Shown piece by piece: positions 1 through 26,332 of a DNA stretch of 31,086 bases (positions are counted from its first letter, which is position 1; each line of letters starts with the position of its first letter). Source of the stretch: a virus (Duplodnaviria > Heunggongvirae > Uroviricota > Caudoviricetes); the IMG/VR virus record IMGVR_UViG_2540341091_000008. One strand, written 5' to 3'. The notes under the pieces are model-generated. The model was given only the letters and a program-made list of their open reading frames with translations, made no database searches and had not been told where the DNA came from. The translations under genes and the position numbers were made by a program.

Positions 1-1284
1 TTACAGACTTCTGGAAGGTTGCGCAGCTCTTACAACACGCGGTTGATCTTCCGCAGCGTCTTCCAGCGCACTTAAATCACGGTCTTTCACCTCTGGCATT
101 TTCAGCGCAGAGATTAAACCAATTACTGAATATGCCATGATCATAATGGCGATCGGATACCAGGATTCCGTCATGGTGCAGAAAATACCCGCCAGGATAG
201 GACCAAAACCGGAAGCGATAAGACCACCAATTTCTTTAGAAATAGCCATCCGGGTAAAGCGGTTTTTACAGCCGAACATTTCTGCCATGGTAATGTTTTC
301 CAGAGCAAATAATCCCAGCACCGCACAGTTATGAATCACAATCAGTGCAACCATAATGGTGCTCGGGGCATAGCTTTTATCTACAATGATAGAAAGCATT
401 GGCCATGCCAGCACAATCGCGGAGGTATTCATAATAATATACGGGATCCGGCGACCAATTTTATCGGATAACCAACCAAGGAACGGAATGGTCATAAAGC
501 CGAGAATCGAACTAATCATCAATGCATCTGTTGGAATTGCTTTGTTAAACAATAACGTCTGCACTAAATAGCCTGCAAGGAAAGTCTGAATTAACCCGGA
601 GTTACCCGCCTGACCAAAACGCAGCCCTGTTGCCAGCCAGAAGGATTTGCTCTGGAACATGCTACCAGCAGGTGCAGGTTTTGCTGTGGGTTGGTTGCTG
701 TCATTAACCTTCTCAAAGACCGGGCTTTCTTTCAGATTCATACGTAACCAGATAGCAAAGACCATCACGACAACGCTCGCCAGGAACGGTATACGCCATC
801 CCCACGCCAGCAGTTCCTCTTTACTGAGAATGAAGAACATAAAGGCCCAGATTGCCGTTGCGCTCAAGGTTCCGCAGTTAGTTCCCATAGCTACAAATGA
901 GGAGATAATTCCGCGCTTACCTTTTGGTGCATATTCCGCCAGCATCGTACCGGCACCGGAAATTTCCGCACCTGCACCCAACCCCTGAATAATACGCAGC
1001 GTCACCAGCAAGATGGGGGCAAAAACACCAATCTGTGCATAGGTCGGTAACACACCAATTAAGGTGGTACAGATCCCCATCATGGTGATGGTAATAAAGA
1101 GCACTTTTTTACGCCCTATTCTGTCGCCCATTTTGCCGAAAATAAATGCTCCGACAATACGCGCCACATAACCTGCACCGTAGGTTCCCATTGCCAAAAT
1201 TAACGCCATTGCCGTTGATGATTCAGGAAAAAATATTTCATGAAACACTAACGCTGCGCCGAGCGAATATAACTGGAAATCCAT
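1..1284 (-). CDS. ydfJ: MFS (metabolite:H+ symporter type) transporter, 427 aa; its 5' end abuts the prophage
   Basis: Long hydrophobic ORF with MFS signature (GKMGDRIGRKK loop, 12-TM pattern). The conserved N-terminal motif sits at the very first residues and there is no SD before the ATG, consistent with a 5' end displaced by prophage insertion. Confidence 0.85.
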   Translation of the reverse strand: MDFQLYSLGAALVFHEIFFPESSTAMALILAMGTYGAGYVARIVGAFIFGKMGDRIGRKKVLFITITMMGICTTLIGVLPTYAQIGVFAPILLVTLRIIQGLGAGAEISGAGTMLAEYAPKGKRGIISSFVAMGTNCGTLSATAIWAFMFFILSKEELLAWGWRIPFLASVVVMVFAIWLRMNLKESPVFEKVNDSNQPTAKPAPAGSMFQSKSFWLATGLRFGQAGNSGLIQTFLAGYLVQTLLFNKAIPTDALMISSILGFMTIPFLGWLSDKIGRRIPYIIMNTSAIVLAWPMLSIIVDKSYAPSTIMVALIVIHNCAVLGLFALENITMAEMFGCKNRFTRMAISKEIGGLIASGFGPILAGIFCTMTESWYPIAIMIMAYSVIGLISALKMPEVKDRDLSALEDAAEDQPRVVRAAQPSRSL

Positions 1285-1885
1285 AATTCACAGGTGTTTT
1301 TTCCCATCCTGTGGTTTCCTTGGCGTTTTCTAGGTTTTTTCAGATAGTTGCATTTTTTAAAAAGCATCCTAAGTTCGATCTCAGTGTCTATCTGGGGCCT
1401 ATTTCTGTCCCATATATGCCCCAAAAAGACTCCCAACAGATAAGTAGTTTTTCATGGATTTACGCGTAAAATCAATAACGGCTGGAAATCATTCAATACT
1501 CGCACTATCGAAAAATTTACCAGCCAACCGCAGCACGTTCTTGCATAAGGCGTGTCTGCGGTTTTTCAACTATTCAGATACATCACTCCCATCACATTCA
1601 TTCCTCCGCATCAAAGGCATATAGGCTATATCACCTTGATATTTTTCTTCTTCAGATAAAAATTGTTATCTATGTATACTTTTAAACCCAATCCGTGTAG
1701 AGTCTCTGCATAAGATAGTTTGCAGTTGCCGCTTCAGCTTGCGCCATAAACCGCCTGATTTTTGCTGCCACCTGTTAGCATTCCTGTATACCTGAAACGA
1801 CAATGTTTATCTACGAACTTTAAGAACACCCAAGATAAAAATTGTCAACCATATCATATATAACACATTACTAATTCGAGGCTAT

Positions 1886-1999
1886 ATGAACAGCATACTG
1901 ATAATCACTTCTCTCCTTATCATATTCAGCATTTTTAGTCATGCCCTAATAAAATTAGGGATTGGCATATCCAATAACCCAGACAAAACCGATGTATAA
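1886..1999 (+). CDS. hypothetical small hydrophobic protein, 37 aa ([37 protein letters not shown])
   Basis: ATG preceded by GAGG 4 nt upstream; one predicted TM helix. Below the ORF-track size cutoff; found by manual reading. Confidence 0.3.
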
Positions 2000-2067
2000 G
2001 CCAACATATCCTGAATCAGACATACAATATCGCAATGAAAATCAATAATATTTTAAGGAATATCTTC

Positions 2068-2301
2068 ATGAAATCAAAAGACACCCTAAAGTGGTTCCCT
2101 GCGCAGCTTCCTGAAGTAAGAATTATCCTAGGGGATGCTGTAGTGGAAGTAGCAAAACAGGGAAGACCTATCAATACCAGAACATTGCTTGATTACATTG
2201 AAGGAAACATAAAGAAAAAATCATGGCTGGATAACAAAGAATTATTACAAACAGCGATATCAGTTCTTAAAGACAACCAAAATTTAAATGGTAAAATGTA
2301 A
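2068..2301 (+). CDS. ydfK: Qin-type prophage small protein YdfK, 77 aa
   Basis: Internal ATG of the 2035..2301 ORF with AAGGA SD; product MKSKDTLKWFPAQLPEVRIILGDAVV... matches YdfK as recalled. Confidence 0.8.
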   Translation: MKSKDTLKWFPAQLPEVRIILGDAVVEVAKQGRPINTRTLLDYIEGNIKKKSWLDNKELLQTAISVLKDNQNLNGKM

Positions 2302-2618
2302 TATAATAAACTTACTTTTTTACCATTTTTCCACTTTAACAACATTTTGCTCCACTTTTCCACGACCAAACAACTTGAAATCTGGTTAAAATAACACGCA
2401 ACACTATTCTTCTTCCTTGAGTCCGCCCGGAACTCGAAAAACAAACCGAGTTAAAGCCTATTTTTCACAAAATCGATTTTGGGTCTCACCAAAATTACGG
2501 GGTTGCATACGCATTCGTTTATTTTCGAACGTGTACATACAAATATGCACAAAAATAATCATAATTATTTTCTGAGATGCATTATGATATGAACACCAAT
2601 TTCGTATAGAGTCTCACT

Positions 2619-3209
2619 ATGTCTCGAATTTTTGCTTACTGTCGGATATCAACGCTGGATCAGACCACCGAAAATCAACGCCGGGAAATCGAAAGTGCAG
2701 GTTTTAAAATCAAACCTCAGCAAATAATCGAAGAACACATTAGCGGCTCAGCAGCAACCAGTGAGCGTCCTGGTTTTAACCGGTTGCTTGCTCGCCTGAA
2801 ATGTGGTGATCAATTGATTGTGACAAAACTGGATCGCCTTGGTTGTAATGCAATGGATATCAGGAAAACAGTGGAACAACTGACCGAAACAGGTATCAGA
2901 GTGCATTGCTTAGCATTGGGGGGCATTGACCTGACCAGTCCAACAGGAAAAATGATGATGCAAGTAATTTCAGCAGTCGCTGAATTTGAACGAGACCTTT
3001 TACTTGAACGCACTCATTCCGGGATAGTAAGAGCCCGCGGCGCAGGGAAACGTTTTGGTCGACCACCTGTGTTAAATGAAGAACAGAAACAGGTGGTATT
3101 CGAACGAATTAAGTCAGGTGTAAGTATAAGTGCCATTGCCCGGGAATTCAAAACCTCGCGGCAAACCATTTTAAGAGCCAAAGCAAAACTTCAGACACCT
3201 GACATATAA
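2619..3209 (+). CDS. pinQ: serine recombinase / DNA invertase (Pin/Gin/Hin family), 196 aa
   Basis: N-terminal catalytic region ([10 protein letters not shown]...) and C-terminal HTH; resolvase/invertase family hallmarks. Confidence 0.95.
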
Positions 3210-3306
3210 AAAATAATCTCGGTGTGAGATGCTTTACGTCTTCCAAGCCCCCTTCCTTGCCGTAAATGGAAAGATACATCTAATTATAGAATTTATATGT
3301 TTTACC

Positions 3307-3882
3307 CTACGGCAGTGCTGGCCATTCAATATCCTGTGCAGTTGACGTATCAACACGGTTCAGCAATACCCGATACTTTTTCCATGCTTCCAGCAACGAG
3401 ATTTCTTCCTCCGTTGCAATTTCCAGATCTGCAGCATCCTGAAGCGGCGCAATATGCTCACTGGCTACCTGCATCAGGTTGTTTTTTGTTTCTTCCGCCT
3501 CCCGGATCCGGAACAGTTTTTCTGCTTCCGTATCCTTCACCCAGGCTGTGCCGTTCCACTTCTGAAACTCCCCTTCCGGGGATAACCAGGTGACATTTTC
3601 CGGTAATGGGCCAAGTTCAGAAATAAATAACGCGTCGCCGGAAGCCACGTCATAGACGGTTTTACCCCGATGATCTTCAACGAGATGCCACGATGCCTCA
3701 TCACTGTTGAAAACAGCCACGAAGCCAGCCGGAATATCTGGCGGTGCAATATAGGAACTGTTTGCTGGCAGACCTGTATGAGGCGGAATATATGCGTCAC
3801 CTTCACCAATAAATTCATTAGTTCCGGCCAGCAGATTATAAATTTTTATGGTCCGTGGTTGTTCACTCATTCTGAATGCCAT
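3307..3882 (-). CDS. tfaQ: tail fibre assembly protein, 191 aa
   Basis: Tfa-family sequence; ATG overlaps the stop of the upstream tail-fibre ORF (TAATG). Confidence 0.9.
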
Positions 3883-4814
3883 TATGCAAGCCTCACAATG
3901 TAGTTAAATGCGATGTTTTTGACGGTGTTTTCCGCGTTACCAGCAGCGTTAACGGTGATGGTGTGTCCATGTGAGCCAATCGCAACAGAGTGCGTATGAG
4001 CACCAATACCGACAGTATGTGCGTGAGCACCTGCAGATGCAGCTGTGCCGCTGACACTATGAGTGTGCGCTCCTGCAGCACTTGTATTCACACTGGCCGC
4101 AGACACTACCTTATGTACTGACCCATTTTGTGACCACTGGCTGATTGCTGATGCGCCTGTGACACTATGAGTATGGTTTCCGGCACTTGCGGCTGTACCG
4201 CTCACACTGTGCGTATGCGCCCCGGTGTTATTCGTGGATTTAGTGCCGTAATCAAACGACGATGTGGTTTTCGTCCCCAAATCCGTACTGGATGCGCTGG
4301 CGCTGTGGGTGTGCGATTTAATGCCGTCCTGTTCCTGAGACAATACGGCCCGACCACTGGCAGGTTTGCCCTTAATCGTCCAGCCACGCATATCAGGGAT
4401 CACGCCTGACGGATAAGCGGCTGCAAGTTTCGGGTAAGCAGATTTGTCAAAAGTCTGCCCCTGCATCAGGGCATAACCAGACGGAACGGTATCTGATGGC
4501 CACGGGATTGGTGCACCGACTGGATAAAACTCTGCAGGAGGATGAGCCGAGGTGTAAAGCTGCGCCCACGGCGACCAGTTTGCGTCGGTCGTATCCCGTC
4601 GTGAACGAATAAATGCCGGAGCATGAGCACCGCTTGTACCACTCCAGCCGATGAGTAACTCACCTTCGCCAACGGCTGTCATCCCTTTCAGGTGAATGAT
4701 ATTTCCATACGCTGTTGGATATCCGTTGTTATACACCTCGTATAACTCAAGACCTGCTGCCCCCTGCGTATTGTCTGTCAGCGCGGCTAACGCCCGCCAA
4801 ACATGGCAAACAGA
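3882..4814 (-). pseudogene. stfQ: side tail fibre protein, C-terminal fragment (N-terminal constant part missing)
   Basis: Ends with the tail-fibre C-terminus ...[14 protein letters not shown]; repeated [15 protein letters not shown] motifs. The frame is open upstream to 4814 with no credible start and runs into the 3' end of the head protease gene. Confidence 0.8.
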
Positions 4815-5554
4815 TCATTAATACCGTTTGCACGCGCTTTTTGCTCTGCCAGTACCTGCGCACGGATACTGTTTTCATCCACCACGGGTGCTGCTGCCTG
4901 CACTGGCGTCCGGGAGGCTGCAGGTTCATCATCCTGTACGCGTGGAGCACTGTTGCGTGGCGGAGTAATCATGTTTCGAATGGATTCCGGCATCTTTTTA
5001 AATTCCTCTGTACGTTTTGACTGAATACATGCCATTGCCTTAACGGCTGGTGTCACCTGATCAGCAAATCCCTGTGCCAGACATTCGGCACCGGACATCC
5101 AGGTCTCATCCGCCAGCATGGCAGCAATTTCATCGGTGGTTTTCCCGGTTTTCTGTGCATAAGCGGGTAACAGAACCGCCTCAACTTTATCGAGCAGGTC
5201 GGCATAGGTGCGCATGTCCTCCGCATCACCGCCCGTAAATCCAAATGGTTTATGAATCATCATGAAGGAGTTTTCCGGCATAATGACCGGGTTTCCCACC
5301 ATCGCAATGACCGACGCCATTGACGCCGCCACACCGTCGACATAAACGGTAATGGACGCACCATGTGTTTTCAGTGCATTAAAAATGGCGATGCCTTCAA
5401 AGACATCGCCACCCGGTGAATTAATATGGAGATTAATGTGGGTGATATCGCCCAGTGCATTCAGATCACTGATAAACTGCTTCGCCGTAACACCCCAGAA
5501 ACCAATCTCGTCATAAATATAAATATCCGCGTCACTCTGGTGACCTGCCTGCAT
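4787..5554 (-). CDS. prohead maturation protease, ClpP-like (S14 family); 3' end may be non-native
   Basis: Protease core [15 protein letters not shown]...[19 protein letters not shown]...MASVIAMVG...MIHKP. Internal ATG at 5554 chosen just after the portal stop; the ORF-track N-terminal extension overlaps the portal gene. Confidence 0.7.
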
Positions 5555-5567
5555 CCTGAACCAGGAA

Positions 5568-7076
5568 TTATTCTTCGGACTGGTCGTCGGTGTGCTGCGG
5601 CTCCTGTCGTTTCGTTGCGGCACTGCTGCCTCCTTTATCACTGGCCGGATCGGTATCAAATACCAGATCCAGCTTGCGGTTTTCATCAATTTCGGCCTTG
5701 CGCCGACGTTTGACATCATCCGGATTACGACCACCTGCACGTACCCAGTCTGATTCTGTCGCCGCTCCACCACGAATCTGAATTTTCCAGGCCTCAGCCT
5801 CCTTAACAGGGTCAATCCACGGCATCACCGGTCCGGAATACACCGCGGTATACAGTGAAGATCGGTCCAGACCGCGGGGTAGCCTGATAACACCGGATGC
5901 CACAGCCTGTTTCAGCCAGGCACGGTACATCGGGCGGGTGACGGCACCAATAAACCAGTCCTGCAGGATCAGGTAGCCATCAGTAGACTCAACCAGTTCC
6001 TGACGCTGGGCGCTGTAAGTGCCGTTATAGTTGCGTGCCGTACTGGAAAAACTCAGACGACTGCCCGCCGCCACGGCACGCAACTGACCATTACGAAAAG
6101 TTTCAAGGTTAGGATTGGGACGATCCGACTTCACCATTCCGATTTCTTCGCCGGGTTTCAGATCGTCGTAAATAATGCCTGGCTGAATGGTAAGCTCGCG
6201 TTCATTCTCCTTGCTGCCATTACCATCCGATTCATAGCTTTGCCCGTCGCCTTTCCGGATGTACATCCCCAGAGCAGCGGCGATCCTTGCTGCAGTCAGC
6301 TCAGAATCTTCATACTCTTTCAGGGCACTGAGGCGGATCAGCACACCGGACAACAAAGACGTCCCGCGCATCTGGTGCAGACGGCGAACAAATTTAAGAT
6401 GCAGCATTCGCTCTGCATCCACTTCTTTGGTTTCCATCTGCCGTCCGGATACAGGACGACTTTTATACACCAGATATTTTTCGGGACGCCCCCAGTCATC
6501 AACAAACACGCCCTGATTCAGCCTGTTGCTCTCATCACTGGTCATGGGAATAAAGTCTGGCTCGAGCGCCTCCAGCCAGAAATGAACACCGGCAGAAGGC
6601 GTCAGGCTGTTTATGCGCCCGGAAACCATCTGGGCAAACACCTCACCATCGCGCAGCCAGGTACGCAGCATCAGACGTTCCAGCATCGGACGGGTAAACT
6701 GCCCGGTGACTTCCGGACTGACAGACCATTCACTCCATCGGGTGCGTATCTCCGCTGCCAGATCACGGGCAATGGCCCCATTGCGTAATACCGGATGTGG
6801 CTCGACAATAATCCCGTTTTTCCCCACCACCCGTTCTTCCAGCTTGTCAAATACACCAATGACCAGATCGTGGTTGTTATCAAGGTAACGGGCCTGCTCA
6901 CGTAACGACACGGCCCCGTACTGGCTTAACTGGTCGGCAGTTCGGTTCTCCCGTCGGGCTTTGTGTGTCCGCGTCGTTTTTACGGCCTCATAAGCCTGGA
7001 TCACCGCACGGGAACGCAGCCTTGCCGCTTTCCATCCTGGTGAAAAAACGCCAATCACATCATCAAGAATTGCCAT
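5568..7076 (-). CDS. phage portal protein (lambda gpB-like), about 502 aa
   Basis: Size, position between gpW and protease, portal-like sequence; ATG at 7076 overlaps the gpW stop (TGATG). Confidence 0.85.
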   Translation of the reverse strand: MAILDDVIGVFSPGWKAARLRSRAVIQAYEAVKTTRTHKARRENRTADQLSQYGAVSLREQARYLDNNHDLVIGVFDKLEERVVGKNGIIVEPHPVLRNGAIARDLAAEIRTRWSEWSVSPEVTGQFTRPMLERLMLRTWLRDGEVFAQMVSGRINSLTPSAGVHFWLEALEPDFIPMTSDESNRLNQGVFVDDWGRPEKYLVYKSRPVSGRQMETKEVDAERMLHLKFVRRLHQMRGTSLLSGVLIRLSALKEYEDSELTAARIAAALGMYIRKGDGQSYESDGNGSKENERELTIQPGIIYDDLKPGEEIGMVKSDRPNPNLETFRNGQLRAVAAGSRLSFSSTARNYNGTYSAQRQELVESTDGYLILQDWFIGAVTRPMYRAWLKQAVASGVIRLPRGLDRSSLYTAVYSGPVMPWIDPVKEAEAWKIQIRGGAATESDWVRAGGRNPDDVKRRRKAEIDENRKLDLVFDTDPASDKGGSSAATKRQEPQHTDDQSEE

Positions 7077-12129: not shown

Positions 12130-12400
12130 GATGTTACCGTAGTATGTGAGTATCCATCGAATAGATACCAAGCAAAAAAGCTCCCGAAGGAGCCTTCATT
12201 TTCACTTTTTTAAATCCAACGACAGACGGCTGGCATTTAAGTATTGTGAAATATTATCAAATGTAATCATCATTGATTTACAAAAGATACATTTTGCCCC
12301 GAAAGGATTCATGTCAGAAACATCAAAAGATGATGTTCTATACTGGGAACCATGACAACACGGGCATCTAAAGTGAATATGGTTTGTAATATTGTCTACC

Positions 12401-12613
12401 TCAAAGCGCCACTACATGAACAGCGGCAGGACCTTTAGGTCCGTTCTCAATACCAAATTCAACTTCCTGATTCTCAGTTAATGTTTTGAAATCGTTGCTC
12501 TGAATTGCTGAGAAATGGACAAACACATCTTTGCTGCCATCTTTCGGCGTGATGAAACCAAAACCTTTTTCAGGGTTAAACCATTTCACTAAACCAGTCA
12601 TTTTGTTAGACAT
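12401..12613 (-). CDS. cspI: cold shock protein CspI, 70 aa
   Basis: Cold-shock domain with RNP motifs KGFGFI and VFVHF. Confidence 0.95.
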
Positions 12614-12976
12614 AATTATTACCTTTTGAAGAAATTAGCCCTTGGGCAGAATGGTCCGAAAAAAAATATCAGAGAGAAAAACCAACAAGGAAATCTCAAG
12701 AGGTACAAATAATAAAATTATAACAATGACTGCTTCAGATAAATTTGTAACAAACCAGAACACCATTAACGCATGATTAACCACCCATAGCAAGGATTAC
12801 TTTTGTAAAGAAAAACACAGCAATGAAAGAATAGCTTTATTTATTAATAATAACGTGTCATTCTGATTAAGACCTTTTATCTTACCCTTAAGATTTCAGG
12901 AATTTTGGCTCATGGAAGAGTCCTTTTTATTTAAATTTTACATTCCGCGATGTAAATGTTCCGATTTAATATTACC

Positions 12977-15006: not shown

Positions 15007-15285
15007 GATTGTGGTGCTTTTTGTGGGAGTCATCCACTTACGCACTTTGTTTTGCCATGCCAGCAGTTAGCTTCTGCTGTAAAACTATTCATGCAGCAAA
15101 CCTGCACTTCACCACAATGGTTAGCATACTTTTCCTGATTAAGATTTTGCCAAATATGCTGGCCATTGTTTCATGTATTGGACCTCCTTAATTTTTATTA
15201 AAGAAATCCAATATTCACTACTCTGTCCGTATCTCTACTCAGGCATCAGCCTTCTTCGTTATCGTATACAGACGAGCGATGAATT

Positions 15286-15501
15286 TTAATCAGTAATGAT
15301 GACATTTGCTGCTGCAGGACCTTTAGCACCACTCTCTATAGAGAAGGTAACCTTTTGACCTTCAAATAAGGTTCGATAATTATCATTCTGAATCGCAGAA
15401 AAATGCACAAACACATCTTTACTACCATCAACAGGAGAAATAAAGCCGAAACCTTTATCAGCGTTAAACCATTTTACTAAACCAGTCATTTTATTTGACA
15501 T
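15286..15501 (-). CDS. cspB: cold shock protein CspB, 71 aa
   Basis: Cold-shock domain; matches CspB as recalled. Confidence 0.95.
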
Positions 15502-15801
15502 TCTACATTCCTTAACTTGAGCCTTTCGGCATAAATGGTTTGCATAACAGAAACGACTTCGTACTTAATTGGAGAGACTCAAAGAAGGAATAAGTGAATA
15601 ACACCTGAAATGAGAACTGCTTTAGTAAACTACTTCGTATATCGTCTGTTCTTCAAACCGACGCAATCATTAACGCATAGTTGAACATATGAAGCAATGT
15701 TTATTTTAGACATCCAGCCATCTTCAACCCCATCAAAAAACTATAGCTTTCTTCAGGAACGTGTGTATAGTGCGCCAAGTTATCAGTATTAAGGAATTTT
15801 T

Positions 15802-18989: not shown

Positions 18990-19145
18990 TTACTCCTCAG
19001 GTTCGTAGACTGTGAAGACAGCGACCTCCGTCTGGCCGGTTCGGATTCGTACCTCGCAGAGGTCTTTCCTCGTTACCAGTGCCGTCACTATGACGGTTAA
19101 ACAGATGACGATCAGGGCGATTAACATCGCCTTTTGCTGCTTCAT
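18990..19145 (-). CDS. hokD: Hok-family type I toxin (HokD/RelF type), 51 aa
   Basis: MKQQKAMLIALIVICLTVIVTALVTRKDLCEVRIRTGQTEVAVFTVYEPEE; one TM plus conserved C-terminus. Confidence 0.9.
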   Translation of the reverse strand: MKQQKAMLIALIVICLTVIVTALVTRKDLCEVRIRTGQTEVAVFTVYEPEE

Positions 19146-19356
19146 AGCCTGCTTCTCCTTGCCTTTTGGCACGTAAGAGGCTAACCTAGATTTGCCGTTC
19201 ATAGATTGAGCCTCAGATTAATGTTAAGCGTCTTGCAGGACGCGTAATGTTAACTGGGGCTTTTCTCTATCTGCCTTTGGTGTTCATGCCTGAGACAGAT
19301 AGCCTCAAGCACCCGCAGCCATTCTACTTAACTCCCGTCACCTGGCCAATATAAAA

Positions 19357-19731: not shown

Positions 19732-20757
19732 TTAATTACCCTTATCAATTTTAAGAAATACATTTCCAATCTCATCAGAATAATCCTGTATTATTTTTGA
19801 AATGACGGCATGATCAATGGTTGGTTTTAAGAATAAAAGTGTCACAGTAATCTGCATCAAACTAATAGCAGTAGCATGGGCTGGATCAGCCATTCCTGAA
19901 TCACTTTGCCCGACCAATAATATATCATCACCAGTTTCACAGAGACCAAGCCTATTTCTCATTGCCTTGGAACCGGTGTGTACATTCTGACTCGCCCACT
20001 TATAATAAGGGCGCATGTGTTCTAACTGAACATCTTTCTCAATAGCTCCAAACCCCACTTTATTATGGTTAGGGAAAATATAAGATGCCCACCCATAATT
20101 ATCTGCATATTTTTTGCCGTATTTTTTTATTAATAGATCAAATTGAACTTTACACTCAGCTATTTCTTCAATAGTTGGACCTTTTGCTTCTAACCGGTGC
20201 TCGTACTTTTTGTGTTCCAACATTCCAGTATATGAATCAACCACTTCATGGTAGTAAAAGCGCTCAGCACACTCTTTTCCATGCTTTGCTATAAACATAG
20301 CTGTGGCTGCTACCTCATGAAGTGCTCGCCATCTCGCTTGGGCAGCATCTGCAAATCCATTCTTTAAGAGACACAAAATTTCGTTGGCGATGTGGCAAGC
20401 TCTTGCGTGATGCCGAACGACTAAATCAAAAACCACATCCTCTTCAGAGGCAGCTTGTGGTCTATAAGAACGATTGAACTCTTCACCGGACTCCGTGCAT
20501 ATCACTATAAGTGTTTCGAGCAAATCAAAAGCCTCTGCCCATCTTGAAATATTTCTCTCAACAAATTCATCACAAAGAGAACGATGTTCTCTAAGCATTG
20601 CATTGGCCGAGCCAATAAGAGATTTTTTAACGACAATGGCTATTTTGGGAATTAGGTTATTAATTTCTTTTTCGATATCAGCGTCACCAGATAAATCAAG
20701 TCTCTCTTTTAAAAGGCTGTCTATGTGCTCAAGCAAAATATTATGAAAAGTATCCAT
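19732..20757 (-). CDS. hypothetical protein, 341 aa (345 from the upstream TTG), AT-rich moron; candidate accessory or defence gene
   Basis: Long clean ORF in a markedly AT-rich island flanked by AT-rich intergenic DNA; no family recognised by eye; contains RWRALH (Rx4H). Confidence 0.7.
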   Translation of the reverse strand: MDTFHNILLEHIDSLLKERLDLSGDADIEKEINNLIPKIAIVVKKSLIGSANAMLREHRSLCDEFVERNISRWAEAFDLLETLIVICTESGEEFNRSYRPQAASEEDVVFDLVVRHHARACHIANEILCLLKNGFADAAQARWRALHEVAATAMFIAKHGKECAERFYYHEVVDSYTGMLEHKKYEHRLEAKGPTIEEIAECKVQFDLLIKKYGKKYADNYGWASYIFPNHNKVGFGAIEKDVQLEHMRPYYKWASQNVHTGSKAMRNRLGLCETGDDILLVGQSDSGMADPAHATAISLMQITVTLLFLKPTIDHAVISKIIQDYSDEIGNVFLKIDKGN

Positions 20758-20862
20758 ATCATATCTCAATAAGTTTTAAATCCATGTGGCACACCCATAA
20801 TATAAAAATAAACAGCATGCCAGTCTAAGTCTGGCTATTTGTATATCATATCACCTGAAACA

Positions 20863-20891
20863 TTGACAGATGTAACCCACCAAAATATTAT
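20863..20891 (+). promoter_or_regulatory. near-consensus sigma-70 promoter, antisense to the IS2-split gene
   Basis: TTGACA, 17-bp spacer, TATTAT on the plus strand. Confidence 0.4.
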
Positions 20892-20984
20892 CAATGACCA
20901 CTCTTGGCACAAAGCGAACAACCACGCTAGCTCTACCTTGTGCCATGAAAATGTCAATGCATATCTGAACTAATGCCCTTTAAT

Positions 20985-21367
20985 CTAGTAACGTCTAAAA
21001 TACCTAACATTTCCCTGATAAAATGCCATAATGCGCTGCATAACTTCGCTCTTCCGGCACTCGCGACAGATTATGTTTAGACAACTATCGTAGCGACGTA
21101 TTTCTCCGTCAGGTAATGACCAGATAAGGTCCGGATCAACCGCAGATGGTTTTTTCAGCTTTGCCCTTGAGAGCTTTTTACGGGCATTTTGCCAGTCCTT
21201 ACGCGCCTGTTCAGACGGGAATAACCCGTAACCAGAGTTGTATACATCGCCACTGGCAACCAGCTCTCTGGCCAGAACGCTCATCAGATATCTTGTTGCC
21301 CCAGTTTTAGTTTCCAGTTGTCGTAACGTCTCGCGCCCACTCTGGCGTACGAGTTCAACAACCTGCC
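20985..21367 (-). pseudogene. 3' part of a roughly 140-aa HTH-like gene split by IS2
   Basis: Frame continues across the IS2 and target duplication from the 5' part at 22699..22746; reconstructed N-terminus MAKVFTQEEREKIKGQVVELVRQSGRETLRQLETKTG... Confidence 0.6.
21363..21367. repeat. IS2 target-site duplication (CTGCC), right copy
   Basis: Identical 5-mer immediately flanks both IS2 ends. Confidence 0.85.
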
Positions 21368-21378
21368 TGGATTTGCCC

Positions 21379-22284
21379 CTATATTTCCAGACATCTGTTA
21401 TCACTTAACCCATTACAAGCCCGCTGCCGCAGATATTCCCGTGGCGAGCGATAACCCAGCGCACTATGCGGATGCCATTCGTTATAATGCTCGAACGCCT
21501 CTGCAAGGTTCTTTGCTGCCGTTAACCCGTCTGGTTTGGGCATGATACTGATGTAGTCACGCTTTATCGTTTTCACGAAGCTCTCTGCTATTCCGTTACT
21601 CTCCGGACTCCGCACCGCCGTGTTCTTCGGTTCAAGTCCCAACATCCGGGCGAACTGGCGTGTTTCATTAGCCCGGTAGCATGAACCATTATCCGTCAGC
21701 CACTCCACTGGAGACGACGGAAGATCGTTGCCGAAGCGGCGTTCCACCGCTCCCAGCATGACGTCCTGTACTGTTTCACTGTTGAAGCCGCCGGTAGTGA
21801 CCGCCCAGTGCAGTGCCTCACGATCACAGCAGTCCAGCGCGAACGTGACACGCAGTCTCTCTCCGTTATCACAGCAGAACTCGAACCCGTCAGAGCACCA
21901 TCGCTGATTGCTTTCTTTCACGGCCACTCTGCCTGTATGTGCCCGTTTCGATGGCGGTACAGCAGGTTTTCGCTCAAGCAACAGCGCATTCTGGCGCATG
22001 ATCCGGTAAACACGTTTGGCATTGATCGCAGGCATACCATCAAGTTCTGCCTGTCTGCGAAGCAGCGCCCATACCCGACGATAACCATACGTGGGCAGCT
22101 CTCCGATAACATGGTGTATACGGAGAAGCACATCCGTATCATCAGTGTGACGACTGCGGCGGCCATCCATCCAGTCATCGGTTCGTCTGAGAATGACGTG
22201 CAACTGCGCACGCGACACCCGGAGACAACGGCTGACTAAGCTTACTCCCCATCCCCGGGCAATAAGGGCGCGTGCGCTATCCAC
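21379..22284 (-). CDS. insD: IS2 transposase OrfB (InsD), 301 aa
   Basis: Matches InsD as recalled; DDE integrase-like core. Confidence 0.95.
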
Positions 22285-22607
22285 TTTTTTGCCCGTCCAT
22301 ATTCAACGGCTTCTTTGAGGAGTTCATTTTCCATCGTTTTCTTGCCGAGCAGGCGCTGGAGTTCTTTAATCTGCTTCATGGCGGCAGCAAGTTCAGAGGC
22401 AGGAACAACCTGTTCTCCGGCGGCGACAGCAGTAAGACTTCCTTCCTGGTATTGCTTACGCCAGAGAAATAACTGGCTGGCTGCTACACCATGTTGCCGG
22501 GCAACGAGGGAGACCGTCATCCCCGGTTCAAAGCTCTGCTGAACAATTGCGATCTTTTCCTGTGTGGTACGCCGTCTGCGTTTCTCCGGCCCTAAGACAT
22601 CAATCAT
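22242..22607 (-). CDS. insC: IS2 OrfA (InsC), 121 aa
   Basis: [26 protein letters not shown]...; overlaps insD as expected for frameshift-produced OrfAB. Confidence 0.95.
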
Positions 22608-22698
22608 CTGTTCTCCAATGACTAGTCTAAAAACTAGTATTAAGACTATCACTTATTTAAGTGATACTGGTTGTCTGGAGATTCAGGGGGCCAGTCTA

Positions 22699-22703
22699 CT
22701 GCC
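22699..22703. repeat. IS2 target-site duplication (CTGCC), left copy
   Basis: Identical to 21363..21367. Confidence 0.85.
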
Positions 22704-22746
22704 CTTTAATTTTTTCCCGCTCTTCTTGTGTAAAAACTTTTGCCAC
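22699..22746 (-). pseudogene. 5' part (16 codons) of the IS2-split gene
   Basis: GTG start after CAGGAGGG; frame joins the 3' part once IS2 and one duplication copy are removed. Confidence 0.55.
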
Positions 22747-22786
22747 AAGCCCTCCTGAAAATTACCTCATGACCAGAAATTAACAC

Positions 22787-23857
22787 TTACCCCCTGAAGC
22801 CCGGCGGAATTTCGTTATCCGGTTCAGAAATATGATTCACACAACGCTGGTTGTTCGTGCCGCTTACCGGGAGCAACCAGGGGTTCTCAAAATTCCGGTC
22901 CGGTCCAAAAAACGTCGTCGCTCGCTGAACAAATTCCGTTCCCGTTTTCCCGGTAGCCACCAAGTATCTTGCGTAACGCCTCACGCCATCCAGCATGGCC
23001 TCTGGTGGCACCCCCTCGCGTAATCTGGCCTTCCAGGCACTGAAAGCGGATTTCTTCGGGTTTGCTCCGGCACGCAACGGGTACTCCCGCCAGACCTGTT
23101 CGAACACATCCGGATAATCCACTCGTCCCACAGACAGCCCGGTGTTTTCCGGGACTACCCGATCGGCTTCCCGCTGAATGGCGGAATCGGCTTCAGGCTG
23201 CTGCAGTTGGTGTGATTGTTCCGGCCTTTGGGTCATCACCTGCTGCACAGCGCCCGAATCGGCTTTCAGCGCATACGCTGAATCGGCTTCCGGTGTCGTG
23301 CCTGCTGGCTGACCAGGATTGACGGTCTGAACATCCCCTGCCTGGTTCGTGGCGTTTTTTACGCCATGGACCATAGTGTTTTGATCTTCTTGATCTGTAT
23401 CTTTATCTGTATCTTTATCTGTCGTGACTCGTCGTGACATGTGCGTGACATTTCGTGATGCGCCGTGACAATCGCCATTTTGTTCCCGCTTTCTTTCCCT
23501 CTCTCGCTGCGCCCTCTTGCGCTCTGCAGGAGATTTTGCGGTTTGCGAAATATTGCCGTTGTCCTCTTTAAGCACCTGGCGTTTTTCCCATCCAGTGATT
23601 AAATCACCATCAAGTACCCGCCCCTGCATCGTCTGCAAAATTGAATCAATTACCTCTTCTGTCACGTCGAGCGCACTTGCCAAATCTTCTGTCGTGACAT
23701 CAATGTGACCTCGCGTGACATTTCGTGACGCGCTCACCAGGAGGTGGATATACACTGCCATCACTGTTGCAATTGGCTGCCCTGACACCCTGGCAATTGT
23801 TCGCCACTTAGGGTCATTTGGCATGTCATGCCATAATCTGAGCCAGGCGTTAGCCAT
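22787..23857 (-). CDS. replication initiation protein (lambda O-like N-terminus, DnaT-like C-terminal domain), 356 aa
   Basis: ATG with GAGGTG SD; repeat-encoded linker (TDKDTDKDTD); C-terminal region resembles primosomal DnaT-like domains; lies downstream of the Cro-like gene. Confidence 0.75.
   Translation of the reverse strand: MANAWLRLWHDMPNDPKWRTIARVSGQPIATVMAVYIHLLVSASRNVTRGHIDVTTEDLASALDVTEEVIDSILQTMQGRVLDGDLITGWEKRQVLKEDNGNISQTAKSPAERKRAQRERERKREQNGDCHGASRNVTHMSRRVTTDKDTDKDTDQEDQNTMVHGVKNATNQAGDVQTVNPGQPAGTTPEADSAYALKADSGAVQQVMTQRPEQSHQLQQPEADSAIQREADRVVPENTGLSVGRVDYPDVFEQVWREYPLRAGANPKKSAFSAWKARLREGVPPEAMLDGVRRYARYLVATGKTGTEFVQRATTFFGPDRNFENPWLLPVSGTNNQRCVNHISEPDNEIPPGFRG
23423..23730. 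repeat. iteron-like array (candidate replication origin) inside the O-like gene
   Basis: About 10 copies of CGTGAC and variants in two clusters phased at roughly 10-bp intervals, including two near-identical 18-mers GCGTGACATTTCGTGA(T/C)G at 23443 and 23713. Confidence 0.45.
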
Positions 23858-23928
23858 ACTCACCTCTTCTGATACCGAATCTTTTTACTCACGAGTTGCC
23901 GGAAGCGATTCGATATGGCTATTATCAC

Positions 23929-24631: not shown

Positions 24632-24690
24632 GTAAACACAGCAAAGAATACCTACAGGTAAACAAAAGTCAATACCCACAGGTTGTTTAC
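24632..24690. promoter_or_regulatory. immunity-region operators between the divergent repressor and Cro-like genes
   Basis: Three copies of GTAAACA-type half-sites, including inverted pair GGTAAACAA (24657) and TTGTTTACC (24682), plus direct repeat CC(T/C)ACAGGT. Confidence 0.5.
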
Positions 24691-26279: not shown

Positions 26280-26332
26280 TTTCTGGTGACGTTTGGCGGT
26301 ATCAGTTTTACTCCGTGACTGCTCTGCCGCCC
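26280..26332 (+). ncRNA. dicF: DicF small regulatory RNA (53 nt, U-tract to about 26337)
   Basis: UUUCUGGUGACGUUUGGCGGUAUCAGUUUUACUCCGUGACUGCUCUGCCGCCC matches DicF as recalled; ends in a GGCGG/CCGCC hairpin plus U-run, immediately upstream of dicB. Confidence 0.8.

Follow-up and report, generated by a model that had tools for sequence, protein, structure and literature searches.

A complete IS2 inserted in a Ren-family (DUF977) gene of a Qin-type cryptic prophage of Escherichia coli

The stretch of DNA considered here (31,086 nucleotides, hereafter the window) contains a Qin-type lambdoid cryptic prophage of E. coli, located in ydfJ. This prophage is defective: a truncated head-protease remnant abuts a tail-fibre remnant, and no capsid or tail genes are left. 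A pR-like promoter candidate was found by promoter scanning at 24672..24645, and a replication initiator or replisome organizer of 358 aa (phrog_3729), the gene of which has internal repeats at 23388-23458, occupies positions 22787..23863 (minus strand). This initiator is the upstream neighbour of a second gene, the start of which lies 40 nt past the initiator stop and which was found in two fragments. The 5' fragment (22699..22746, minus strand) consists of a GTG and 15 further codons (VAKVFTQEEREKIKGQ), and the 3' fragment (20985..21367, minus strand) comprises codons 17-141 and the stop, read from 21362 downwards. Between them lies an insertion sequence, and further downstream are found an AT-rich gene of the DUF5677 family and hok.

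The inserted element is a complete IS2 (21368..22698, minus strand), the transposase genes of which are codirectional with the split gene. Its 1331 bp are exactly the length of the reference IS2. IS2 belongs to the IS3 family and transposes by a copy-out-paste-in pathway via a minicircle. On the plus strand, the left flank ends with ...AACAACCTGCC at 21367, the element begins with TGGATTTGCCCC at 21368 and ends with ...GGGGGCCAGTCTA at 22698, and the right flank resumes at 22699 with CTGCCCTTTAA. Read on the minus strand, it opens with TAGACTGGCCCCC (IRL) and closes with GGGGCAAATCCA (IRR), displaying 5'-TA and CA-3' at the respective tips. The left repeat, IRL (42 bp, 22657..22698, minus strand), starts with TAGACTGG, and its first triplet is a TAG that stops the 5' gene fragment in frame. 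The right repeat, IRR (41 bp, 21368..21408, minus strand), ends with ...GCAAATCCA and holds the stop codon of orfB (TAG, 21379-21381) as well as a GTG at 21404. Inverted repeats of 41 and 42 bp are those described for IS2 (PMC3299598). An imperfect terminal inverted repeat was also detected independently at these ends (21376-21408 versus 22657-22689, 79% complementary).

Both reading frames of the element are intact. The first, orfA (22242..22607, minus strand), codes for an InsC-like protein of 121 aa with an HTH_Tnp_1 domain, and its coordinates map to insC1 of K-12. The second, orfB (21379..22284, minus strand), codes for an InsD-like protein of 301 aa with the rve integrase core or DDE domain (Pfam matches to rve, rve_3 and HTH_21). 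The two genes overlap, as in other members of the IS2 group, at an intact A6G slippery heptamer, AAAAAAG (22284..22290, minus strand; cttttttg on the plus strand). Such a heptamer is the programmed -1 frameshift site that gives the OrfAB transposase. Likewise, the RefSeq annotation of the same copy describes an IS3-like element IS2 family transposase with programmed frameshift.

Immediately outside the element, two identical copies of CTGCC (GGCAG on the gene strand) were observed at 21363..21367 and 22699..22703, i.e. the 5-bp target site duplication typical of the IS2 group. The left copy is the GGCAG that precedes codon 17 in the 3' gene fragment. Comparison with IS2A of K-12 (NC_000913.3 381260-382590, in yaiX) revealed the same length, the same arrangement of orfA, orfB and A6G site, a duplication of the same size and 1329 of 1331 identical bases. 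The two mismatches were found at IS position 32, in IRL, where the ends of both elements are otherwise the same, and at position 606, in orfB. The duplicated targets differ, being ATTAC around IS2A and GGCAG in the window. The first-pass annotation had described a complete 1331-bp IS2 with recognisable termini and identical 5-bp flanks, and had taken it for a relatively recent and unrearranged insertion. The first point is borne out by the sequence, and the second agrees with the near-identity to IS2A and the perfect duplication.

Removal in silico of IS2 and one CTGCC copy produced, on the minus strand, an open frame of 141 codons free of stops and frameshifts. It starts at a GTG (22746) preceded by a Shine-Dalgarno-like AGGAGGG (22750..22756, minus strand), and the restored protein of 141 aa reads VAKVFTQEEREKIKGQ up to the insertion point and VVELVRQSGRETL...NVRYFRRY* beyond it. 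The continuous frame of roughly 140 aa that had been predicted upon excision was thus recovered exactly. The empty site also exists in nature. When positions 20700-23900 were compared by megablast with 5426 complete E. coli genomes, many genomes gave a two-part match with an exact span of 1865 bp (3201 minus 1336). In KD602, the empty site differed from the excised window by one mismatch in 1865 bp, and the DUF977 protein annotated there (WP_001151208.1) is identical to the restored one. With a junction query of 600 bp over the excised site and a required coverage of at least 80%, an uninterrupted junction was recorded in 1546 of the 5426 genomes.

A match of five bases such as CTGCC has a probability of 1/1024 by chance alone. 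Yet chance is no serious alternative here, since the match flanks a known IS of exact length and the empty site occurs naturally. As for an assembly artefact, short-read assemblies are classically prone to errors at IS copies, which is all that could be said in favour of this explanation, as the data themselves gave no sign of one. Against it, the same junctions were found with 100% identity in eight independently assembled complete genomes, and the element has the exact length of IS2, a perfect duplication and matching natural empty sites. We consider the probability of an artefact or a chance resemblance to be negligible.

The occupied site is rare. It was found, identical, in only eight of the 5426 complete E. 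coli genomes. The carriers, among them GPEC1054 and APEC E19057, were mostly chicken or avian pathogenic (APEC) O78:H4 isolates, to which two human isolates are added. In a South Korean carrier from chicken and a Swedish one from a human, the prophage was the same, occupied one and the same locus and had identical protein accessions. APEC E19057 differed from the window at 4 of the 26,387 bases compared. The most parsimonious reading of this distribution would be a single insertion that was then inherited vertically.

The restored protein belongs to a known family. Its sole Pfam match was DUF977 (PF06163; E 4.8e-29, 101.6 bits for a gathering cut-off of 22.1), with residues 1-135 aligned on positions 1-133 of the 134-position profile. 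Among the PHROGs, it matched phrog_142, named 'Ren-like exclusion protein' (E 4.3e-45, residues 1-137), a profile that was also matched by the Ren protein of lambda along its full length (E 1.6e-41, residues 1-95). Direct alignment with lambda Ren was restricted to the C-terminal 20-23 residues (BLASTP E 5e-6; hhalign probability 78%), where both proteins display the motif ECRxSxxMxRvlAxY (NIICRECRKSEVMQRIMAFY versus NLVFKECRQSAAMKRVLAVY), and beyond these ~23 residues the link to lambda Ren rests on the PHROG profile. Among the sequenced phages of Escherichia and Shigella, 24 were found to carry homologues, labelled LygF, DUF977 or Ren-like exclusion protein. A large protein collection yielded 866 cluster representatives at E <= 0.001, and the best 120 of these 866 carry PF06163.

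Other sources were less informative. No match was obtained for the restored protein in NCBIfam or PADLOC, and the PDB, searched by sequence, yielded no more than a meaningless match at E 0.19. In the literature, the name 'LygF' led to papers on goose-type lysozymes and to two Salmonella genome announcements, and 'Ren-like' combined with prophage to annotation mentions only.

Besides phrog_142 and the C-terminal motif, two further traits are shared with lambda Ren (NP_040633, 96 aa, encoded after P in the pR operon): both proteins display winged-helix or MarR-like signals at their N-terminus, and both are encoded directly past the replication genes. The main differences are the size (96 versus 141 aa), the presence in the window protein of an additional basic, low-confidence middle segment (residues ~85-113) that is absent from lambda Ren, and the lack of a Pfam DUF977 match for lambda Ren.

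At the structural level, an AlphaFold2 model of the restored protein, built from 26 close homologues, displayed pLDDT values above 90 for residues 11-70 and above 85 up to residue 80; it was poor at residues 87-113. The modelled topology consists of a helix (7-24), a strand, two helices (29-36 and 40-53), a two-stranded wing (57-64) and a last helix (67-83). The top fold matches in the PDB were all winged-helix proteins or domains (GntR, IclR, MarR, ArsR/CadC, the AraR DNA-binding domain, the Rpa2 winged helix and SelB), with probabilities of ~0.99 but weak E-values (0.02-0.07). DUF977 had previously been classified as winged-helix by profile methods (COMPASS) by Kinch et al. (PMC2686095). The predicted N-terminal winged helix of H1-B1-H2-H3-B2-B3 topology is therefore supported by the model, the fold matches and this earlier classification, in agreement with what had been suspected from the sequence at first sight.

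From its position, the split gene had further been proposed to stand where a P or helicase-loader gene would be expected. Taken to its end, this proposal would make it the functional counterpart of lambda P, and IS2 would then have ended the autonomous replication of the prophage. It does follow directly on the initiator, and the prophage contains no gene resembling P or DnaC. Moreover, in a preprint (bioRxiv 10.1101/2021.04.19.439022), lambda Ren itself is called 'likely involved in DNA replication' and is said, alongside O, to interact with Rex proteins. On the strength of this description a replication-associated role is possible, but a role as loader is not supported. Apart from DUF977, the restored protein displayed no match to any loader family: neither Phage_lambda_P (PF06992), nor IstB/DnaC, nor AAA+ was found, although Pfam comparison recognised PF06992 in the P gene of a related prophage and IstB_IS21 in YdaV of K-12. 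It is also small and, judging from the model, would be a winged-helix protein devoid of an ATPase.

In the related prophage just mentioned (E. coli 2017.17.03CC, locus L006), an O-like gene with a DnaT domain, a P gene (PF06992), a DUF1627 gene and a DUF977 gene follow one another. P and DUF977 thus occur together, and mutual exclusion of DUF977 with another loader was not observed. The location of DUF977 downstream of P parallels that of ren in the O-P-ren-ninB series of lambda. The Rac prophage of K-12 was also considered, with YdaW as a putative DUF977 gene downstream of the DnaC-like YdaV, and was dropped as positional evidence because YdaW is a DUF1627 protein.

The initiator provides a further argument. 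It matched phrog_3729 with an E-value of 8e-256, PHROGs of DnaD-like loaders and primosomal proteins (phrog_1701, E 2.5e-62, and phrog_9327) were matched by its C-terminal half, and a faint DnaT-like signal was found in its tail. Loader or primosome contact could thus plausibly be built into the initiator itself, which suggests recruitment of the host primosome by a single phage protein. The module in the window consists of an initiator with a loader- or primosome-like C-terminal half and no separate P, a layout that is common in E. coli, as the 1546 genomes with adjacent initiator and DUF977 genes and no P between them indicate. Altogether, we regard a P-like function of the split gene as highly improbable. 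From its profile matches and its position, it is rather a member of the Ren family (DUF977/phrog_142) than a helicase loader. The slot after the initiator is ren-like, not P-like, and the initial functional guess is corrected in this sense.

What remains of the gene is a stub of 16 codons on one side of IS2 and, on the other, a promoterless piece of 125 codons, so that the gene has most likely been inactivated. The 3' piece is nevertheless in frame with the GTG (21404) located inside IRR, and together they form a chimeric ORF of 139 aa. PGAP/RefSeq lists this ORF as an intact DUF977 protein (WP_000627167.1), while its first 14 codons belong to IS2. The annotation should be corrected accordingly: WP_000627167.1 is a 3' fragment preceded by IS2 codons, not an intact gene. 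The chimeric ORF has no obvious ribosome-binding site, is deprived of the first half of helix 1 and is most likely non-functional. Since it is open from the GTG in IRR, a shortened DUF977 product may conceivably be made by read-through from the transposase genes.

Because the element lies between the pR-like promoter and the genes downstream, effects on the latter have to be considered as well. The first-pass annotation had noted that the insertion puts IS2 between the early-promoter region on one side and the AT-rich gene and hok on the other. In physical terms this is so, but a functional consequence need not follow. The DUF5677 (AT-rich) gene is preceded by a hairpin (20819-20835) and, according to a consensus scan, by promoter-like sites at 20827..20799 and 20769..20740 (minus strand), and a sok RNA belonging to hok was recognised (Rfam). 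These features suggest that both neighbours may be expressed independently, in which case they need not fall silent when cut off from the pR-like promoter. The insertion may exert a polar effect on the genes downstream, and less read-through might reach the Q gene upon induction. In PADLOC, no match was found for the DUF5677 neighbour.

IRR of IS2 is known to carry an outward -35 element able to form fusion promoters (PMC9330008; PMC3299598). A hybrid promoter composed of this -35 and the flanking DNA was examined and rejected: the would-be -10, 17 nt away, reads GCAGGT, and a promoter consensus scan did not reveal any promoter-like site at the junction between IS2 and its flank. This bears directly on the idea that the insertion was adaptive or regulatory, either by silencing a costly Ren-like gene or by changing the expression of the 139-aa ORF, the DUF5677 gene, hok or Q. 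The outward -35 would speak for it, as would the orientation of IS2, codirectional with the operon, and the chimeric ORF that starts in frame within IRR. Yet the junction lacks a recognisable promoter, the DUF5677 gene has promoter-like sites of its own, hok/sok is autonomous and the allele is confined to eight genomes. A further argument in its favour, that IS3-family elements have entered Ren-family genes at least three times (in the window, in 2017.17.03CC and in renD of prophage DLP12), deserves closer inspection.

In the cryptic lambdoid prophage DLP12 of K-12, renD is split near its 5' end by IS3C. Here too, an IS3-family element interrupted a gene in the ren position, just past the replication-gene region. 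The differences are that the element is IS3 and not IS2 and that the prophage is another one. The comparison is one of gene position, and the first fragment of renD (31 aa) displayed no Pfam match. Closer still is the DUF977::IS2 of 2017.17.03CC, which displays the same IS in the same orientation in a homologous target. There, the insertion occurred around codon 55 with a GGTGA duplication, in a prophage that also has P and DUF1627, and it is an independent event. In all, four IS2 copies besides that of the window were recorded in related loci or prophages, each with its own 5-bp duplication. A hot spot for IS2 in the DUF977 gene was considered and rejected, the insertion sites being all different (in 2017.17.03CC, another codon and another duplication).

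An orientation bias of IS2 was not supported in the related prophage regions. When loci were oriented like the window, all five IS2 copies (5/5) lay on the same strand; one of them (locus L003) is located in a leftward operon region, and the pattern is therefore mixed relative to transcription.

As to frequency, the gene is ~430 bp long and was matched in ~4000 of the 5426 genomes, which each carry many IS2 copies. By a rough estimate, two or three IS insertions in a gene of this size would be near the neutral expectation. An adaptive or regulatory origin of the insertion appears highly improbable to us. The more general proposition, that IS3-family elements recurrently and selectively knock out prophage DUF977 genes, or that the IS2-DUF977 chimera is functional through an altered N-terminus and IS2 read-through, seems very unlikely. 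Were selective knockout real, a possible reason would be that a winged-helix protein with an anti-exclusion or replication-associated role burdens the lysogen or weakens the defences already resident in it.

The reading we prefer, with a probability of roughly 0.92, is that of a recent IS2 transposition into a Ren-family gene of a decaying Qin-type prophage, selectively neutral and vertically inherited since. A single event would have placed a functional-looking IS2 at codon 16/17 of the 141-codon gene, a predicted winged-helix member of DUF977/phrog_142 directly downstream of the initiator in the ydfJ prophage, and would have generated a duplication of the usual 5 bp (GGCAG when read on the gene strand), leaving behind the 16-codon stub closed by the TAG of IS2 and the promoterless 125-codon piece. 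The capsid and tail genes had been lost before the insertion, which is why the event is best read as neutral decay, i.e. one more step in the degradation of a cryptic prophage. Likewise, in a prophage without these genes, the insertion is probably irrelevant for particle production. The occupied allele would then have been passed on vertically within a small, mostly avian lineage of E. coli. Neutrality and single origin are what we infer from sequence comparisons.

The feature is known in kind, being composed of a known IS, a known gene family and a known type of cryptic prophage, and it already figures in the RefSeq annotations of public genomes. As such, the insertion would be an instance of ordinary prophage decay and would matter little beyond bookkeeping, although it may be used as a lineage marker for a small, mostly avian clade of E. 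coli.

The window prophage is of the Qin type and sits in ydfJ, which was found truncated at 1-1284; pinQ, tfaQ and ydfK are common to K-12 Qin and the window prophage. Within 1-5815, a tail-fibre remnant directly adjoins a truncated ClpP-like head maturation protease, an arrangement which indicates that the prophage is defective through deletion of its major capsid and tail genes. RNA features, recorded as Rfam matches at the gathering threshold, consisted of IS009 sRNA (3341-3539, minus strand), a cspA-type thermoregulator leader in front of each of cspI and cspB (12374-12759 and 15270-15662, both minus strand), the sok antitoxin RNA adjoining hokD (19140-19314, minus strand) and DicF sRNA (26281-26332, plus strand). 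As expected, this set fits a Qin-type prophage.

The 3' fragment of the DUF977 gene split by IS2 forms an ORF of 139 aa (20985-21404, minus strand), which RefSeq/PGAP presents as an intact 'DUF977 family protein' (WP_000627167.1). Yet codons 1-14 come from the right inverted repeat of IS2 and, on that account, the ORF reads as chimeric; the proper label would be pseudogene fragment. Two further insertions, independent of the one in the window, were recorded in genes of the ren slot: an IS2 at about codon 55 of another DUF977 allele in strain 2017.17.03CC (2503-3833 of the locus, with duplication GGTGA), and an IS3C in renD of K-12 DLP12 (2778-4035 of the locus). Disruptions of ren-position genes by IS3-family elements thus amounted to three in total.

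The replication initiator gene (22787-23863, minus strand) gave no Pfam match at E <= 0.01. The C-terminal half of its product matched PHROGs annotated as DnaD-like helicase loader and as primosomal protein. Over the final 24 residues of the product there is a weak similarity to the C-terminus of DnaT. A separate P or DnaC gene was not found downstream of it in the window prophage. Replication modules of this kind, with the initiator alone, are common among E. coli strains, the same uninterrupted initiator-DUF977 junction occurring in 1546 of 5426 complete genomes (600-bp query, at least 80% covered). Within the gene, the stretch DKDTDKDTD / RRVTT...SRNVTH is encoded by two short tandem repeats, TCTTTATCTGTA (x2.9, 23388-23422) and TCGTGACATGT (x2.5, 23432-23458), which are plausible candidates for iteron-type origin repeats, comparable to those of lambda O. 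A single base of the initiator gene (22959, A) sets the window apart from strains KD602 and APEC E19057, and GPEC1054 matched 20700-23900 perfectly; this strain is the probable source of the window or else the nearest relative of that source.

The ren-nin slot is occupied by a DUF5677 gene of 345 aa (19732-20769, minus strand; phrog_27456, labelled 'unknown function'), whose protein had no PADLOC match. An Enterococcus preprint tested nine candidates including a DUF5677 ORF, which is absent from the five reported with antiphage defence (PMC12632615). The window gene is AT-rich (GC 0.33-0.45) and is preceded at 20799-20835 by a hairpin and its own predicted promoter-like sites, which give it the look of an autonomous moron. 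Among related prophages the cargo of this slot varies, being methyltransferase/DUF551, DUF7167, ParDE or an alpha/beta hydrolase.
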